DNA of 41,081 nt from a virus (Duplodnaviria; Heunggongvirae; Uroviricota; Caudoviricetes), in the IMG/VR virus record IMGVR_UViG_646206259_000005; one strand, written 5' to 3'. How positions within the stretch are numbered: position 1 is the first letter of the stretch; each line of letters begins with the position of its first letter. Below, piece by piece: positions 1 through 36,681 of the stretch. A model generated the notes under the pieces. That model did not search any database and had not been told where the DNA came from. It was given only the letters and a program-made list of their open reading frames with translations. The position numbers were made by a program, and so were the translations under genes.

Positions 1-1158
1 ATGCTCACCGTTAAGCAGATTGAAGCAGCAAAGCCGAAAGAAAAACCATACCGCCTACTCGATGGTAATGGCCTGTACCTTTATGTCCCTGTATCAGGGA
101 AAAAGGTATGGCAGCTTCGCTACAAGATTGACGGTAAGGAGAAAATCCTGACCGTCGGAAAATATCCACTTATGACTTTGCAGGAGGCAAGAGATAAAGC
201 ATGGACCGCGAGGAAAGACATCTCGGTTGGCATCGATCCGGTAAAAGCGAAAAAGGCTTCGTCTAACAACAATTCCTTTAGTGCGATTTACAAGGAATGG
301 TACGAGCACAAGAAGCAAGTCTGGTCAGTAGGCTATGCAACTGAACTTGCAAAAATGTTTGATGACGACATTTTACCTATCATCGGCGGCCTTGAAATTC
401 AGGATATTGAGCCGATGCAACTGCTGGAAGTAATCCGCAGATTTGAAGATCGCGGTGCAATGGAGCGAGCCAACAAAGCCCGCAGAAGATGCGGCGAGGT
501 TTTCCGTTACGCTATTGTCACTGGTAGGGCTAAATATAACCCGGCACCTGACCTTGCTGACGCCATGAAGGGATACCGCAAGAAGAACTTCCCGTTTCTT
601 CCTGCAGACCAGATCCCTGCATTCAACAAAGCACTGGCAACATTTTCAGGAAGTATCGTATCGCTCATTGCGACCAAAGTTTTACGCTACACAGCCCTAA
701 GAACGAAAGAGCTTCGTTCCATGCTATGGAAGAACGTCGATTTTGAAAACAGGATTATCACCATCGACGCCAGTGTGATGAAGGGACGCAAAATTCATGT
801 GGTCCCGATGTCAGACCAGGTGGTTGAACTTCTCACTACGCTAAGCTCCATCACCAAACCAGTATCAGAGTTTGTTTTTGCCGGGCGCAACGATAAGAAG
901 AAGCCAATCTGCGAGAACGCGGTTCTACTTGTGATCAAACAAATCGGCTATGAGGGTCTAGAAAGCGGTCACGGATTCAGGCATGAATTCAGCACGATTA
1001 TGAACGAGCACGAATGGCCTGCTGACGCTATTGAAGTGCAACTGGCACATGCCAACGGCGGATCTGTGCGCGGTATTTACAACCATGCTCAGTATCTCGA
1101 TAAGCGCAGAGAAATGATGCAGTGGTGGGCGGATTGGCTTGATGAGAAGGTAGAGTGA
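1..1158 (+). CDS. int: Tyrosine integrase, P4/IntS family
   Basis: 385 aa; C-terminal HGFRHEF...HANGGSVRGIYNHAQY consistent with tyrosine recombinase R-H-R-Y catalytic region; same length as E. coli CPS-53 IntS as I recall. Confidence 0.9.
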   Translation: MLTVKQIEAAKPKEKPYRLLDGNGLYLYVPVSGKKVWQLRYKIDGKEKILTVGKYPLMTLQEARDKAWTARKDISVGIDPVKAKKASSNNNSFSAIYKEWYEHKKQVWSVGYATELAKMFDDDILPIIGGLEIQDIEPMQLLEVIRRFEDRGAMERANKARRRCGEVFRYAIVTGRAKYNPAPDLADAMKGYRKKNFPFLPADQIPAFNKALATFSGSIVSLIATKVLRYTALRTKELRSMLWKNVDFENRIITIDASVMKGRKIHVVPMSDQVVELLTTLSSITKPVSEFVFAGRNDKKKPICENAVLLVIKQIGYEGLESGHGFRHEFSTIMNEHEWPADAIEVQLAHANGGSVRGIYNHAQYLDKRREMMQWWADWLDEKVE

Positions 1159-1310
1159 TCCGCCTTAACAACTATCGAAGAGCACAAAGCCTTGTGTGTC
1201 TCATAGGCTATGAAACAATCATTTTACATGGTTACTTCACTACTTCCGCACAATATGATATCGTTCACAATCTAAAAACATTAATAATTTATCCATTACC
1301 GCGGTTAATG

Positions 1311-1336
1311 CCCGTCGCTTCCAACGGGCTTTTTTG
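1311..1336 (+). terminator. Rho-independent terminator downstream of int
   Basis: Hairpin CCCGT..ACGGG followed by TTTTTTG directly read in sequence. Confidence 0.5.
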
Positions 1337-1397
1337 TAAATTATATTTTTATTACCTTATATTAATATTGGTAATATGTCTGCATGATGTTTTATAT

Positions 1398-2195
1398 TTA
1401 TTGCGTGAGCTTCGCATGATAGCTGGAGCATCTCTTGTCATCACTAATTAGCTCCGCTTTATCCGTTCTTGCCCATATTATATTTCTTTTTATTATTTTT
1501 GCTGGATTACCGGCTGCTGCACACATAGATGGCACATCTTTAGTTACAATACTCCCATACCCAATGACAGATCCGCTTCCAACAGATACCCCTTTCATTA
1601 TAGAGACATTTCTCCCTACCCATACGTAACTAGATATAATGATATCTTTTGCCCAATTAATCCTTTTTTTGCTATGAATATCAAATATAGGATGCCCATC
1701 TGATGCACGCAAAATAACATCTCTTGCTATCATGCAGTCATGGCCAATTGTAACATTGCACTTATCAGTGACGACTTCAAAACCTGCACCTATTGTCGTT
1801 CTTCTACCGATAATAACTTTTGAACCTTTTGTTGCGACAATATCACCTTTAATCTTACTGTTTTTATGTATTCTTACGTAATTATTATCACCCCTAAATA
1901 TTACGGTAAGCCATCGACACTCAACATCATCTTCTATAATAAGTTTGTTATTGTTTCCATTGAACTGAACTTTATTCTCTTTGCTATTTACAAGATCTCC
2001 ACATACAAAAATATTACCTGATCCATTATCATCAACGGAAAACGAGTCTTGAGTCTTGAGTCTTGAGTCTTGAGTCTTGAGTCTTGAGTCTTGAGTCTTG
2101 AGTCTTGAGTCTTGAGTCTTGAGTCTTGAGTCTTGAGTCTTGAGTCTTGAGTCTTGAGTCTTGAGTCTTGAGTCTTGAGTCTTGAGTCTTGACAT
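1398..2195 (-). CDS. neuO: Hexapeptide-repeat O-acetyltransferase with N-terminal RLKTQDS heptad repeats (NeuO-like polysialic acid O-acetyltransferase)
   Basis: Translation MS(RLKTQDS)x7 then left-handed beta-helix acyltransferase-like body (IGxxxxIG-type repeats); AT-rich moron next to tailspike; architecture of CUS-3 neuO from established literature. Confidence 0.8.
   Translation of the reverse strand: MSRLKTQDSRLKTQDSRLKTQDSRLKTQDSRLKTQDSRLKTQDSRLKTQDSFSVDDNGSGNIFVCGDLVNSKENKVQFNGNNNKLIIEDDVECRWLTVIFRGDNNYVRIHKNSKIKGDIVATKGSKVIIGRRTTIGAGFEVVTDKCNVTIGHDCMIARDVILRASDGHPIFDIHSKKRINWAKDIIISSYVWVGRNVSIMKGVSVGSGSVIGYGSIVTKDVPSMCAAAGNPAKIIKRNIIWARTDKAELISDDKRCSSYHAKLTQ
2044..2190 (-). repeat. 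21 perfect tandem copies of heptanucleotide AAGACTC (coding strand) inside the 5' end of the O-acetyltransferase gene
   Basis: Counted directly: gagtctt x21 on + strand from 2044 to 2190, start codon complement at 2193-2195; 147 nt = 49 codons, in frame. Confidence 0.95.
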
Positions 2196-2348
2196 ATTAG
2201 TATCCTACGTTATTTTACCACTAGTTACTTTTCTTGTCATTAAAAAGCATTTAAATTTTTATATTTAATTTCGTTGACGTCAATGTTTTTTGCCAATGTA
2301 CTTACTTCTTTATGTGAGCAGTTCATATTTTTGACGCCAACGAAACAT

Positions 2349-5297
2349 TTAGTGCTTCCCTTCTATTAAGTCTAACCTAGCTTTTATTCTTTCTATTTCT
2401 CTGCGCTGCCATGCCGCCTCGATATAGAATAAGAGATCAGGTCTGACCCCCCATCTAGATCCTGCTGGCGTTATTTCAACGCGCTCAATGATGTCTTCCA
2501 TTACCATCACTGGATTATCATCCTCATCAACAATGATGCTCCCGTCATTATCAGTCAGCGGCATTTCCCTTTGGCCAGTAATGACGTCATCATATACTGC
2601 GGGATAATCGTCATAGCAAAGAAACGCATAGCGGCATGTTGTGCTTTCTTCTTCCATGAGTCCGTGAGAAATAAGAACATCACGAAGTTGCTGCGCGATT
2701 ACACCATGATGTATCCTCGCCCCTTCTTCCCCCTTTATAGCGACAGCGTTCAGCCATTTATAAGCGATATACCTGACGTCACCCCAGGCATCCAGCAATG
2801 CTTCGTCAGGAGAGACCGGCTCTGTCTTTAATGTTCCGTCACTGGTAACCACAGGATTGGAGCCAAGATAAACTGTCGAGAACCTGTTTCCCGGACCACC
2901 AAGAGCATTTACATTATCAAGATAAGGTTTAACATCTCCGTTCTCAAAAAGATGTTCGAGTGCGTTATATACCGCGCGACGTGGAGTACTGCTTCCGGAA
3001 CCATGCAACGTTATCATTGCACCATCTGCTGAAGACGTTGTTTCACCGCCGCTAACGATTAATCTCTGAGCGGTAACATCATCAGACGGTACTTTCTTCG
3101 CAATAATGGCGTAATTACCCTCAAGTTTGACTTCCGCGCGAACTTGTCCTGATGTACCTGCATGGACAGTCAGTGACTGGACGGCAACATCATCTGTGAA
3201 ATCAACGGGTACAGGAACCGTCCTCACGCCTGACGTCGACATAAAAGTAGGAAGCGTTCTGTTAGGAGTGGCTCCGTAGACAAAATCCCTTGAAACAAAT
3301 TCTTCCTGTTTAATTTTCACCCTGAAACAATACAAATCAGCCGGGTGACCATCGTGAACATAAGGATATTTTCTGTTGTTATCCCCTATGCTCCATGGGT
3401 TTAGAAAGTCTTCCCCACCGAAAATGTAGTACAGCCAGTTGTCTTTGATACAAACTGAACCAACACCAACCGCAGAGTTAACTATTCCGCCCTGATAAAT
3501 CTGATCAGTAACATTAACCCACTCTACATTATCCAGACTCCACTCATTGACGTTAACTCTGGTCATAAATGTTCTTGGATAGTTTCCTGCATAACGGTTA
3601 TCAGGTTCTCCTCCTTCCCACTCACCAAATGCGCGCTCACTGCCAAAAATAATCAGCTCATCGCCAACTTTGGCAAAAGGAAGGTTTGAGTGATGAACAT
3701 TATTTGGGAAGCGAAGAGAATTCCATGATGTACCTAAATCAGAGCTTCTGTGCAATGAACTACCGGGTTGAGTACTTAATGTCCCCCTGGTCGTCAGATA
3801 CAGAATGCCATCATAATATTTTACACATGGCTCAGATGCATTCGCCTCATATTCTGCAGGTATGCGTCTGCGAACAAAGCTACCAGGAGAACCGAAAGCA
3901 TCAGAGAAATAGAGTATCCCAAGCTCGCGTGGACCAATATCACCATTATGGTAGCCAACAGCAAAACTGTTATCGCTAATCGTCGCAAAACTGTGAATCT
4001 CAGTAACAGGAGTGCTTCCGTCAACAAAAGAAGGAATAGTTCCAAGACTGGTTTTTCTCCATGGTGACGAGTGAAATGATGTACCAAAACTCCAGTATCT
4101 ACCCTCGTTATTCTGATCCACATCCTGGGTATTTTGCGTCGTAACTGTAAAAGTATTTTTATCAATAACAGTAGTCACCGTCATATTCCCGGTAACACCT
4201 GTAACACCAGAGTTTGAGAAGTTGACAAAATCACCAGCAAATAATCCGTGATCAGTAATGCGAATATAAGCGACTTGCTGATTTGCTGCTTTCGTTATAC
4301 CACCATAAGCGCGAAGGCTGCGACTCATTGGGCGATCCCACAACTCTGCAACCTGCAGTTTATTTCCGCTCACGGTCCGCGTCTCAATTACAGCAAAAAG
4401 GCGATTTCTGACAACCCCCATACTCATGCAGTGATAGTTAACTGTGGGATAGTTTTCATGTAAATCTGTAAGCCATTCCGGCGTTGTCCAGGTCCTCCCG
4501 TCATCTCCTGAGCGAACCCATGCAACATGGAGGTTATTTACACCATGGCGGTCTCCAGCCATAAAAGGCGCATAGATGACATTGTCATATACAAACGTTT
4601 TATCCTGCGTCCAGGCGTTGTACCACGGTGTATCTGTAATTTTAAATAACTCTCCCTGGATAAAATCTTCAGAAGCATAAAAAAGAGGCTGACCCGGTAT
4701 TCTCTCAAATAAAAAACGAGCATTTTTAAATCGACTGACATCTGGAAGAGTTGATACTTTAAAAGTAAGCCCTCGCCCATCTATCTTTTCACCACCTGTT
4801 GCAACAGAAAGTAATTCTGATAGAGCTGATGTATCATCATGAACACCATCACCAATAGCCCCCCAACCTCTTACATCATAACTGTCTCTCCATCTTGCTA
4901 TCTGAAGTTTTGGGTATTTATTCGCTCCATCTGGGTCTTCTAATTGCTGCCGTAACTGATCAGGATCATACTTCAGCACATTCGGAAAATAGAACTGCTG
5001 CACACCATATGCATCATAAACAGCCATAGAATGGCCCTGTACAGTAACGAATTTGGCAATCTGTCCGTTATATACCGGATATCCAGCAGCGTTAATGATG
5101 ATTGGTTGCGAAACAGGAACGTGAGAACCGTCTTCATTCTCCACATAAACCTGAATCTGGTTTTCAGGATTTACTGGGTCAGTGTCAATTTTACCGATAT
5201 AAATCTTTCCATTAGCTACGGCTTTAAAAGAACGAGCCATAGTGAAGAGTTGCGAAGGCATGCTTACCACAACATTGGCATTTATTGAATCTGTCAT
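2349..5297 (-). CDS. Tailspike: P22 gp9-like head-binding domain + sialidase/endosialidase-type catalytic domain + C-terminal intramolecular chaperone domain
   Basis: N-terminus [12 protein letters not shown]...[22 protein letters not shown] closely matches P22 tailspike N-terminus; Asp-box motifs SGDDGRTW and SSDLGTSW; C-terminal region typical of self-cleaving chaperone domains of endosialidases. Confidence 0.85.
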
Positions 5298-6327: not shown

Positions 6328-6560
6328 GTCGTTAATTCCTATGCGTGGTTTTACGATACCGAAGCCCTGACTGTTCCCGCAGTTGGGGCTTCACTGTTTT
6401 GATTTCTTTGCCGCATCAAGCATCACTTCTGAAAACGTGCGCTTGCCACTGAATACTCTTTCTCTTCTCAATTTTTCGTTCGTGCCAAATGATTCGCCAT
6501 GAACAAAATTTGGTCTTAAAATGGTAATCGCAATCTCTTTGACTACTGCATCCAAGCGAA

Positions 6561-25734: not shown

Positions 25735-25810
25735 TGGTGCTGGTTAACGGACTTGAACCGCTACCCATTCGCTTACAAGGCGACCGCTCTACCATTGGAG
25801 CTAAACCAGC
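25735..25810 (-). tRNA. tRNA-Thr (anticodon UGU)
   Basis: Hand-folded cloverleaf from reverse complement GCTGGTTTAGCTCCAATGGTAGAGC...CTTGTAA...GGTTCAAGTCC...AACCAGCACCA; 76 nt, acceptor stem perfectly paired, encoded CCA. Confidence 0.6.
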
Positions 25811-25815
25811 ATATT

Positions 25816-25890
25816 TGGCGGGACAGCGTGGACTCGAACCACGATAAGAAGGTTAACAGCCTTCCGTAATGACCTTTATACGACTGACCC
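25816..25890 (-). tRNA. tRNA-Asn-like (anticodon GUU), with one acceptor-stem and one D-stem mismatch
   Basis: Hand-folded: anticodon loop CTGTTAA and T-arm CGTGG-TTCGAGT-CCACG as in E. coli tRNA-Asn; 75 nt with encoded CCA; T4-T69 mismatch. Confidence 0.5.
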
Positions 25891-35726: not shown

Positions 35727-36681
35727 ATGAGTGAAGTAACAGATTTAGTTGTTATTGAAAAAGCAAATGCAATGACTGTATTTTAGTCTGCCGACCAGAT
35801 TGAAGAAATTCTCCAAAAGGTTGAACGTGAAGTTATGTCATTTGTGCCTGATATCACAACGGCAAAGGGCAGAAAGGAGATCGCTTCTCTGGCGTATAAA
35901 GTTGCGCAGACGAAAACATATCTCGATGGTCTTGGCAAAGACCTTGTTGCTGAACTGAAGGAAATTCCAAAGCTAATTGATGCCAACCGCAAGACAGTGC
36001 GCGATCGCCTTGATGAACTGAAAGCCAAGGCGCGCCAGCCTCTTACTGATTATGAGGAAGAACAGGCGCGGATTAAAGCCGAAGAAGAAGCTAAGGCAGC
36101 AGCTGAAGCTCTCGCAAAGCAAATTGAGTCTGACCATGAAATAGCGATTTTGATGGATCGCGAATTTGACCGCCAAAGAGAAGAGGCAAGACTCAAAGCG
36201 AGAGCATGAAGAACGATTAAAAAGAGAAGCTGAAGAGAAAGCCAGAGCAGAAGCCGAAGCAAAGGCAAAAGCCGAAATTGAAGCAGCAGCAAGGCGAGAA
36301 GCAGAAGCTAAGGCCGCAGCGGAACGTGCAGAGCGTGAACGCATTGAAGCCGAGCAACGAGCACAGCGCGAAGCAAAAGAGGCAGCAGAACGAGCTGAAA
36401 GAGAAAAGCAGGCAGCAATTGAAGCAGAACGCAGAAAAGCACAGGAGGAGGCTGAACGAATCCGTCGCGAGGCTGAAGCAAAAGAGCAAGCCAGAATAGC
36501 AGAAGAAAAAAGAATCAAGGACGAAGAAGAGCGTAGAGCAAAGGATAAAGCTCACCGGAAAGAAGTAAATAACAAAATACTTGCTGACCTTATCAAGGTT
36601 GGCGCATCAGAAGATGTTGCTAAAAATATCATAACAGCCATCGTAAAAGGCGAAGTATTCGCAACAAAAATAACCTACTAA
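35727..36681 (+). pseudogene. Disrupted coiled-coil (Glu/Ala/Lys/Arg-rich) early gene: in-frame TAG at 35784-35786 and a frameshift near 36166-36209
   Basis: ATG at 35727 with GGAGG RBS; same frame continues into ORF 35835..36209 after an amber codon; ORF 36166..36681 continues the same repetitive protein in another frame. Confidence 0.5.

Follow-up and report, generated by a model that had tools for sequence, protein, structure and literature searches.

The 21-copy heptanucleotide tract of a prophage-borne neuO gene: reading frame, variation among isolates and prophage context

Since codons 2-51 of a capsule-modifying enzyme gene in the 41,081-nt stretch of viral DNA analysed here (the window) consist of a perfect tandem repeat, and since the 7-nt unit of this repeat is not a multiple of 3, the question arises whether the tract is a slipped-strand phase switch of the kind known from neuO of prophage CUS-3, and what a count of 21 copies means for the state of the gene. 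From our point of view, the locus is almost certainly the neuO contingency locus of a CUS-3-like, P22-type E. coli K1 prophage, present here with 21 copies and in frame, and we found no evidence that contradicts this explanation. The neuO phase switch itself is real and already known in detail, its mechanism having been established since 2005, with support from structure, enzymology and population genomics. As such, an in-frame neuO with seven heptads is useful for strain annotation and adds nothing on mechanism. The switch matters because phase-variable O-acetylation of the K1 capsule alters antigenicity and also how susceptible the bacteria are to K1 phages, to neutrophils and to serum (PMC13001214; PMC9659370; PMC8653822), and the K1 strains concerned are agents of neonatal meningitis and of urinary tract infection.

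The repeat tract and the enzyme that carries it

The tract lies at positions 2044-2190 and reads, in an exact string test, as 21 copies of GAGTCTT on the plus strand and hence as 21 copies of AAGACTC on the minus strand, with zero mismatches. In TRF, the array spans 2044-2192 and amounts to 21.3 copies; all positions match (100%), and its score is 298, compared to 44 for the next-best array in the 41-kb window. The fractional 0.3 copy stems from the TC after the start codon, so that the periodicity extends to 2192. Outside the tract, GAGTCTT does not occur on the plus strand of the window and AAGACTC occurs there once. A chance origin of 21 perfect copies of a 7-mer cannot be entertained. The coordinates, the copy number and the count of seven encoded heptads that an earlier note on this DNA had given for an O-acetyltransferase gene are exact by string test, TRF and ORF translation. 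The same note had placed the tract straight after the start codon, which holds only as a location at the 5' end of the ORF: the ATG occupies 2193-2195 on the minus strand and is followed by TC and only then by the first unit (ATG-TC-AAGACTC). This is the arrangement described for the poly-psi array, i.e., tandem 5'-AAGACTC-3' units that start 2 nt after the start codon (PMC3046976).

The gene is the ORF at 1398-2195 on the minus strand, which encodes 265 aa and translates as MS, seven copies of RLKTQDS and a continuation that begins with FSVDDNG. The earlier note had expected an acyltransferase downstream of the tract, and the ORF list, Pfam and PDB matches agree in this and go further, in that the encoded protein is identifiable by its sequence as NeuO, the polysialic acid O-acetyltransferase. 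It matches the Pfam family Hexapep (PF00132) with 40.9 bits (gathering cutoff 27; E = 1.3e-10) and PDB entry 3JQY ("Polysialic acid O-acetyltransferase"), which is NeuO with four heptads, with E = 1.6e-160 and a single I/V difference over 242 aligned residues. The catalytic residues are present as His168 and Trp192, which correspond to His147 and Trp171 in the NeuO+12 numbering (PMC3046976). Among the NCBIfam models, the protein shows weak sub-threshold matches to many sugar O-acetyltransferases and reaches the cutoff of no equivalog, the best being galactoside O-acetyltransferase with 76 bits compared to the 347 bits needed. As, in addition, only six clusters of relatives are found at E <= 1e-40 among 5.8 billion proteins, NeuO forms a small family of its own.

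The next closest solved structure is OatWY (PDB 2WLC and related entries; E = 5.7e-31), the sialate O-acetyltransferase of Neisseria meningitidis W-135/Y, which has been described as the closest structural homolog of NeuO (PMC3046976). Both are left-handed beta-helix O-acetyltransferases acting on polysialic acid; however, OatWY is far more distant in sequence and is encoded on the chromosome, and its solved chain lacks an N-terminal heptad tract. [quoted passage not shown]

Prophage context and relatives of the locus

The whole window represents a P22-like (Lederbergvirus) prophage that is closest to phiv205-1, which comes from an APEC strain, and to CUS-3. Its relation to CUS-3 is mosaic, with two 25-kb halves covered to 75% and 64% at 97-98% identity. 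Within the prophage, neuO is a cargo gene between two phage genes, in an arrangement that is collinear with the CUS-3 record CP000711. Its left neighbor, at 1-1158 on the plus strand, encodes an IntS-type tyrosine recombinase (Pfam Phage_integrase, Arm-DNA-bind_3 and Phage_int_M), whose counterpart is annotated int or intS in CUS-3 and in RefSeq genomes. The upstream neighbor, at 2349-5297 on the minus strand like neuO itself, encodes an endosialidase tailspike of 982 aa with the Pfam domains End_beta_propel (E = 1.6e-233), End_tail_spike, End_beta_barrel, End_N_terminal, P22 Head_binding and Peptidase_S74, and its counterpart in CUS-3 is annotated siaK1. This tailspike recognizes and cleaves the same polysialic acid that NeuO acetylates.

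The extent of the cargo can be read from the endosialidase phage vB_EcoP-720R6, which is otherwise collinear and in which window positions 1075-1370 and 2235-2700 are contiguous in a blastn comparison. Exactly 1371-2234 is thus absent from this phage, which delimits neuO, its ribosome binding site and its promoter region on the minus strand as a cargo cassette of 864 bp with a GC content of 0.35-0.37. That the gene is AT-rich relative to the phage backbone had been remarked before and holds also in detail: its GC content is 0.359 without the tract, and that of 1159-2348 is 0.353, compared to 0.468 for the window, 0.478 for the integrase gene and 0.440 for the tailspike gene. Two different junctions that lack neuO were also seen.

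Within the cassette, an AGGA resembling a Shine-Dalgarno sequence, by consensus resemblance only, is located at 2203-2206 on the minus strand, 7 nt 5' of the ATG (TAACGTAGGATACTAAT-ATG). A consensus scan further returned a putative sigma-70-like promoter at 2212-2240 on the minus strand, composed of ATGACA, a 17-nt spacer and TAAAAT with an extended -10 TG (10/12 matches). Since such matches are no more frequent in the region than in shuffled sequences (7 versus 4.7 +/- 2.0), the best match at 2240-2212 is no evidence of function and has to be regarded as putative only. Rfam and tRNA scans near the neuO locus returned nothing relevant to it.

The window starts at the start codon of the integrase gene, and attL and the tRNA lie outside of it. 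In AREA_R504, the same integrase gene is located just downstream of a tRNA-Arg. For CUS-3-type prophages, pgl-bioA is an alternative integration site. Usually, the CUS-3 prophage integrates at argW, beside dsdC (PMC9659370).

How close the relation to CUS-3 of E. coli K1 RS218 is at the locus itself becomes clear from a megablast search with 1160-2400, which returned CUS-3 (CP000711) as well as further CUS-3 neuO entries that come from K1 isolates. The DNA of the two loci is 98.5% identical over 1241 nt, most of the difference being a 14-nt gap that corresponds to 19 versus 21 copies, and the annotation of CP000711 reads [quoted passage not shown]. Both have the heptamer, its position 2 nt after the ATG, the enzyme and the frame rule in common, as well as the neighboring genes (int and the siaK1 endosialidase tailspike) and the P22-like backbone. 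They differ in phase, as the RS218 record with 19 units is OFF whereas the window copy with 21 is ON, and in two residues, with codon 2 being TCA (Ser) and residue 62 Ile in the window compared to TTA (Leu) and Val in CUS-3. Unit, position, enzyme, neighbors, frame rule and polymorphism between isolates, and thereby all sequence-testable features that define the CUS-3 neuO poly-psi locus (Deszo et al., 2005, as cited in PMC3046976 and PMC13001214), are found at this locus. The neuO of the UPEC ST95 strain MS7163, which we liken to the window copy by its published description and not by sequence, also is a phase-ON allele with 21 repeats (PMC13001214).

The nearest NeuO-like group outside E. 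coli consists of acyltransferases of 223 aa named for Atlantibacter hermannii (WP_313439072.1 and others; cluster P0002), which are 85-86% identical over the whole catalytic core. On two contigs, the gene lies directly downstream of an endosialidase-type tailspike gene on the same strand, as neuO does; however, umuDC follows downstream, where E. coli neuO has the integrase gene. The N-terminus is MAQ[E/D]VDKSF in place of the MS(RLKTQDS)n of E. coli, the upstream regions are unrelated, and in these relatives we found neither the heptanucleotide tract nor any other tandem repeat. Nor did other 5' repeats appear among the 85%, 60% or more distant relatives of NeuO. Since relatives of 85-86% identity thus sit beside an endosialidase without a tract, the tract seems, as far as these sequences go, to have been added within one lineage to an endosialidase-acetyltransferase module that is older. 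A derivation of the heptamer from the tract-less N-terminus was considered and proved too weak, as the aligned ATAAATC matches AAGACTC at 4/7 positions.

Reading-frame logic and variation among isolates

A 7-nt unit does not make up a whole number of codons, and the acetyltransferase therefore stays in frame only if the number of units is a multiple of 3. This rule, including the in-frame position of 21, had been part of the earlier interpretation and is borne out by an in silico series, in which the tract was replaced with n = 0-45 units and translated: a full-length acetyltransferase results only if n mod 3 = 0. For all other copy numbers translation ends 4 or 19 codons beyond the tract. With n = 3k+1 it reaches a TGA at 2032-2034 (minus strand) and the OFF product ends in ...RLVFR, and with n = 3k+2 it reaches a TAA at 1988-1990 (minus strand) and the OFF product ends in ...RFPLMIMDQVIFLYVEIL, both positions being given by the series and a coordinate calculation. 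The tract itself does not stop translation in any phase. As 7 and 3 have no common factor, the three minus-strand frames of the repeat all encode circular permutations of the same RLKTQDS heptad and are free of stops, in contrast to the plus strand, which has a TGA in every frame. Out-of-frame alleles are hence predicted to be translated through the whole basic poly-psi peptide plus a tail of 4 or 19 residues, which gives OFF products of 56 to >120 aa at common tract lengths. It would be quite surprising if OFF alleles were not simply null and their free peptide bound polysialic acid or acted otherwise; in that case, the switch would be a toggle between two products rather than between on and nothing.

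A comparison of repeat numbers among isolates had been suggested as a check on the switch. We found the neuO locus in 183 of 5426 complete E. coli genomes, chromosomal in every case, and sampled the 60 best matches as well as 60 evenly spaced ones of the 183, which yielded 91 distinct full-length loci. In 87 of these, the difference in span to the window is a whole multiple of 7 nt, and the span-derived copy numbers of these 87 loci run from 5 to 60 with 37 distinct values. As the flanks are about 98-100% identical across the compared loci while the length of the tract differs, the mutation rate of the tract is far above that of the adjacent sequence. Multiples of 3 make up 30 of the 87 (34.5%), which is indistinguishable from one third (p = 0.82), so that about two thirds are out of frame; in the evenly spaced sample alone, the in-frame share is 27.7%. 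With an ON fraction of about one third, the assemblies do not point to selection for ON or for OFF, and selection on phase state, which was considered, is therefore unsupported. This agrees with the 34.4% ON reported in PMC13001214, where 64 complete genomes carried 3-53 repeats and 65.6% were OFF.

Direct counts in fetched loci agree with the span-derived numbers. They range from 5 copies in AREA_486 to 60 in PE144, with 14 in 729_xx_1_3_yolk, 18 in both phiv205-1 and CE10, 19 in CUS-3 RS218, 21 in FDAARGOS_1300 (with the Leu2 allele) and 29 in AREA_504, whose sibling strain AREA_R504 is one unit apart with a reconstructed count of 30. Perfect tracts, with copy numbers of 8-32, were found on ten of the 11 IMG/VR viral contigs whose core is 100% identical; the tract of the remaining contig (L023) comprises 15 units and is interrupted. 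On the protein level, complete cluster members, which represent ON alleles, have lengths of 216 + 7k, e.g., 223, 265, 307 and 314 aa. The four of the 91 spans that are not multiples of 7 belong to interrupted or corrupted tracts or to a diverged allele; among public assemblies, corrupted tracts are found in 729_270514_x_12 (17 units, three degenerate units and 12 units) and in UM146 (10 units, AACCTT and 9 units). An interrupted allele of the L023 type contains a 42-nt super-repeat, and a tract with an inserted IS3 element was also seen.

Published work describes neuO tracts of 2-93 copies that change by strand slippage, mostly by one unit, with full-length translation only at multiples of three (PMC3046976). 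A switch from 38 to 39 copies was seen in 2/30 colonies after four passages (PMC8653822), and fragment analysis of a 21-copy culture of MS7163 gave 93% with 21, 1.9% with 20 and 5.35% with 22 repeats, the phase-ON allele being accompanied by confirmed O-acetylated sialic acids (PMC13001214). The attribution of the tract to slipped-strand switching as in CUS-3 neuO is thus confirmed by the literature, even for a 21-copy allele (PMC13001214), and CP000711 annotates the same tract.

Mechanism, alternative readings and annotation

Translational phase variation by slipped strands is also the mode of the Neisseria and Haemophilus contingency loci, with, e.g., tetranucleotide tracts in lic and lgtC and pentanucleotide tracts in opa. 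As in these loci, the repeat of neuO is intragenic and near the 5' end, has a unit that is not a multiple of 3 and switches a surface-modifying function reversibly and stochastically. Unlike them, neuO has a 7-nt unit, is borne by a prophage (a "mobile contingency locus") and has in-frame repeats that also tune activity. During replication, the two strands of the tract can re-anneal out of register within the repeat, and this pairing adds or removes whole 7-nt units. Counts that are not a multiple of 3 let translation terminate 4 or 19 codons past the tract, while 21 copies put the gene in frame, so that it encodes NeuO with seven RLKTQDS heptads, which in the ON state O-acetylates the K1 capsule. 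As the efficiency rises with heptad number according to published data, the tract is both an on/off switch and a dimmer; this grading of enzyme activity is an aspect of the literature that is absent from the earlier note. For the slippage rate, the enzyme activity, the acetylation of the capsule and the phage, neutrophil and serum phenotypes we draw on publications, and we infer that this particular copy likewise switches and is expressed in its host.

A hairpin or other structure as the driver of slippage was rejected, since the single-stranded tract has no stable fold and its MFE of -1.4 kcal/mol is weaker than that of 200/200 shuffled sequences (z = +4.9). With the tract being essentially unstructured, plain out-of-register re-annealing is enough for slippage.

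Two readings would deny that the tract is a translational switch, and we consider both hardly credible. In one of them, the repeat is merely a stable coding repeat, i.e., a heptad domain selected on the protein level. This would fit with the rise of activity with heptad number (PMC3046976) and with the fact that the same heptad results from all three frames; however, the units are identical on the nucleotide level, synonymous positions included, which indicates ongoing slippage and not protein-level selection. Moreover, 37 copy numbers in 87 genomes, about 65% of them out of frame, between flanks of 98-100% identity already refute this reading with population data, and switching has been seen experimentally (PMC13001214; PMC8653822). 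In the other, the tract acts on transcription, by setting the spacing of a promoter or by forming a terminator, for which one could point to a perfect TTGACA at 2189-2194 on the plus strand, made by the junction of the last unit and the start codon, and to the speculation that DsdC binding inside the gene influences the neuO locus (PMC9659370). The TTGACA, however, points away from neuO, the tract lies downstream of the ATG within the ORF and has no stable single-strand structure, and the frame rule accounts for the published ON/OFF phenotypes. The neuO contingency locus, switched on the level of translation, hence remains our preferred explanation.

Two further readings accept the neuO locus and concern its state. 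That neuO is "currently ON", as the earlier note had put it, is correct for the reading frame, but not as a statement on expression: the ON call is genotypic and concerns the frame of one consensus sequence. It is unlikely, but conceivable, that the gene is ON by genotype and functionally silent in a host that lacks the K1 polysialic acid capsule or DsdC-driven transcription. neuO transcription depends on the host regulator DsdC, which is needed for maximal expression and without which expression is more than sevenfold lower (PMC9659370), and the polysialic acid that NeuO needs has to be 14 or more residues long (PMC3046976). Within the 41-kb window, which comprises the prophage only, neither the kps/neu capsule cluster nor dsdC is present. 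Against a silent gene speak the endosialidase tailspike of CUS-3 and the tight link of this prophage to K1 strains (PMC3046976; PMC13001214), and the usual integration at argW next to dsdC (PMC9659370). We regard it as rather improbable that the count of 21, and with it the ON state, is an assembly artefact or the consensus of a mixed population whose dominant allele is perhaps out of frame. Short-read assembly is difficult across a repeat of about 150 bp, as the corrupted tracts in 729_270514_x_12 and UM146 illustrate, and this allele (Ser2, Ile62) is absent at 100% identity and 21 copies among the 5426 complete E. coli genomes, so that the count of 21 derives from this one assembly; another 265-aa protein with 21 copies (P0011) differs from that of the window at S2L and I62V. 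However, the tract is perfect and uninterrupted, 21 is in the middle of the natural range of copy numbers, and the majority of 93% in the 21-copy culture (PMC13001214) indicates that a consensus usually mirrors the majority allele. We therefore take the window copy as neuO with 21 copies in frame.

In this context, it should be added that NeuO protects against lytic K1 phage (PMC9659370). Automatic pipelines label neuO merely as "acyltransferase" or "general stress protein" and, for OFF alleles, call a C-terminal fragment of 111 aa. Generic labels and fragment calls of this kind make the phase state invisible in standard annotation.

Relatives of NeuO without the heptamer tract

Natural NeuO relatives of 223 aa that lack the tract and share 85-86% identity are encoded at L015:1477-2148, L033:1477-2148 and L035:2533-3204, three loci for which the source gives the name Atlantibacter hermannii and in which these genes are the counterpart of window 1398-2042. 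The proteins start with MAQ[E/D]VDKSF, no tandem repeat was found near the 5' end of the gene in any of the three loci, and the upstream region has no kinship to the one that precedes neuO in E. coli. In L033 and L035, an endosialidase-type tailspike gene is followed directly by the NeuO relative and then by umuDC, and the tailspike is 61% identical to that of the window across the C-terminal 400 aa. The comparison points to the heptamer tract as a probable derived addition that is specific to E. coli.

Interrupted tracts and unit counts within one clone

The neuO allele of IMGVR_UViG_2537562173_000011 carries an interrupted tract of 15 units (L023:1395-1499), in which a block of three AAGACTC, one AAGCCTC, one AAGACTC and one AAGTCTC unit occurs twice and is followed by three further AAGACTC units. 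The perfect run is at most 3 units long, a 42-nt super-repeat is present, and the product alternates between RLKTQDS and SLKTQVS heptads. As the variant units recur exactly, sequencing error is less likely here. Slippage of the super-repeat would keep the frame, and the allele may act as a 'dimmer without an off switch'. For two further interruptions, namely those of UM146 (10 units, the 6-nt unit AACCTT and 9 units) and HH97 (8 units, TAGTCTT and 15 units, in a neuO allele only ~94% identical to that of the window), both readings can be envisaged: they are either real and stabilising, or sequencing errors.

Two 729 isolates have been described as a single, vertically transmitted clone. The RefSeq records hold 14 units for 729_xx_1_3_yolk (NZ_CP160116.1), and 17 units, 3 degenerate units and 12 units for 729_270514_x_12 (NZ_CP160121.1). 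In a preprint, the differing neuO annotation of the 729 strains was put down to an annotation error on 'identical DNA' (10.1101/2024.11.22.624809); contrary to this, the tract differs between the deposited records, which may reflect real phase variation or assembly noise within the repeat.

Absence and disruption of neuO

CUS-3-like elements without neuO show two distinct junctions. GPEC172 lacks exactly window 1442-2231, the segment bounded on either side by a 9-bp direct repeat, TCTTGTCAT (window 1433-1441 and 2232-2240), and of the neuO ORF it retains the final 44 nt; because of both features, this junction has the appearance of a secondary deletion. In phage vB_EcoP-720R6, which adjoins bioA, window 1371-2234, the entire neuO cassette, is missing.

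In E. coli AREA_R504 (NZ_CP123315.1), an IS3-family element with the ends TGAACCGCCCCGGG... and a 3-bp target duplication (TCT) lies inside the heptamer tract (L008:2385-3907). The contingency gene is thereby knocked out permanently. Removal of the element reconstructs a tract of 30 units, one unit apart from the uninterrupted 29 of the sibling strain AREA_504. In FDAARGOS_1300 (NZ_CP069996.1), the sole other 21-copy genome among those examined, the endosialidase tailspike that immediately precedes neuO has been truncated by an IS3-family transposase (1490-1841 of locus L005), in line with remarks in the literature on CUS-3-like prophages that decay but keep neuO.

Annotation of neuO and other features of the window

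From out-of-frame alleles, the NCBI pipeline derives an 'acyltransferase' of 111 aa (WP_011478229.1), with the internal Met155 as its first residue (539-874 or equivalent in L004, L006, L008 and L009, corresponding to window 1398-1733). ON alleles are named just 'acyltransferase', and the label in phiv205-1 is 'general stress protein'. Standard annotation hides both the phase state and the identity of neuO.

On the strand opposite to neuO, the last repeat unit and the neuO start codon together form a perfect TTGACA, with TATTTT 16 nt after it (window 2189-2216, +); this is probably a chance match. A degenerate period-6, AGAAGC-like array (window 36225-36308, +) codes for a low-complexity Glu/Ala/Lys-rich stretch; with only 63% matches the repeat is imperfect, and a role as a switch is not obvious. 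A 'TolA' protein is annotated somewhere in the matching regions of related phages. Two adjacent, phage-borne tRNA genes, tRNA-Thr(TGT) and tRNA-Asn(GTT) (window 25735-25890, -), lie in the region that separates the lysis genes from the late regulator. The sar antisense RNA, an antirepressor regulator of the P22 immI region, is found at window 6329-6395 (+; Rfam RF00262, 76.6 bits), which fits a P22-like backbone.
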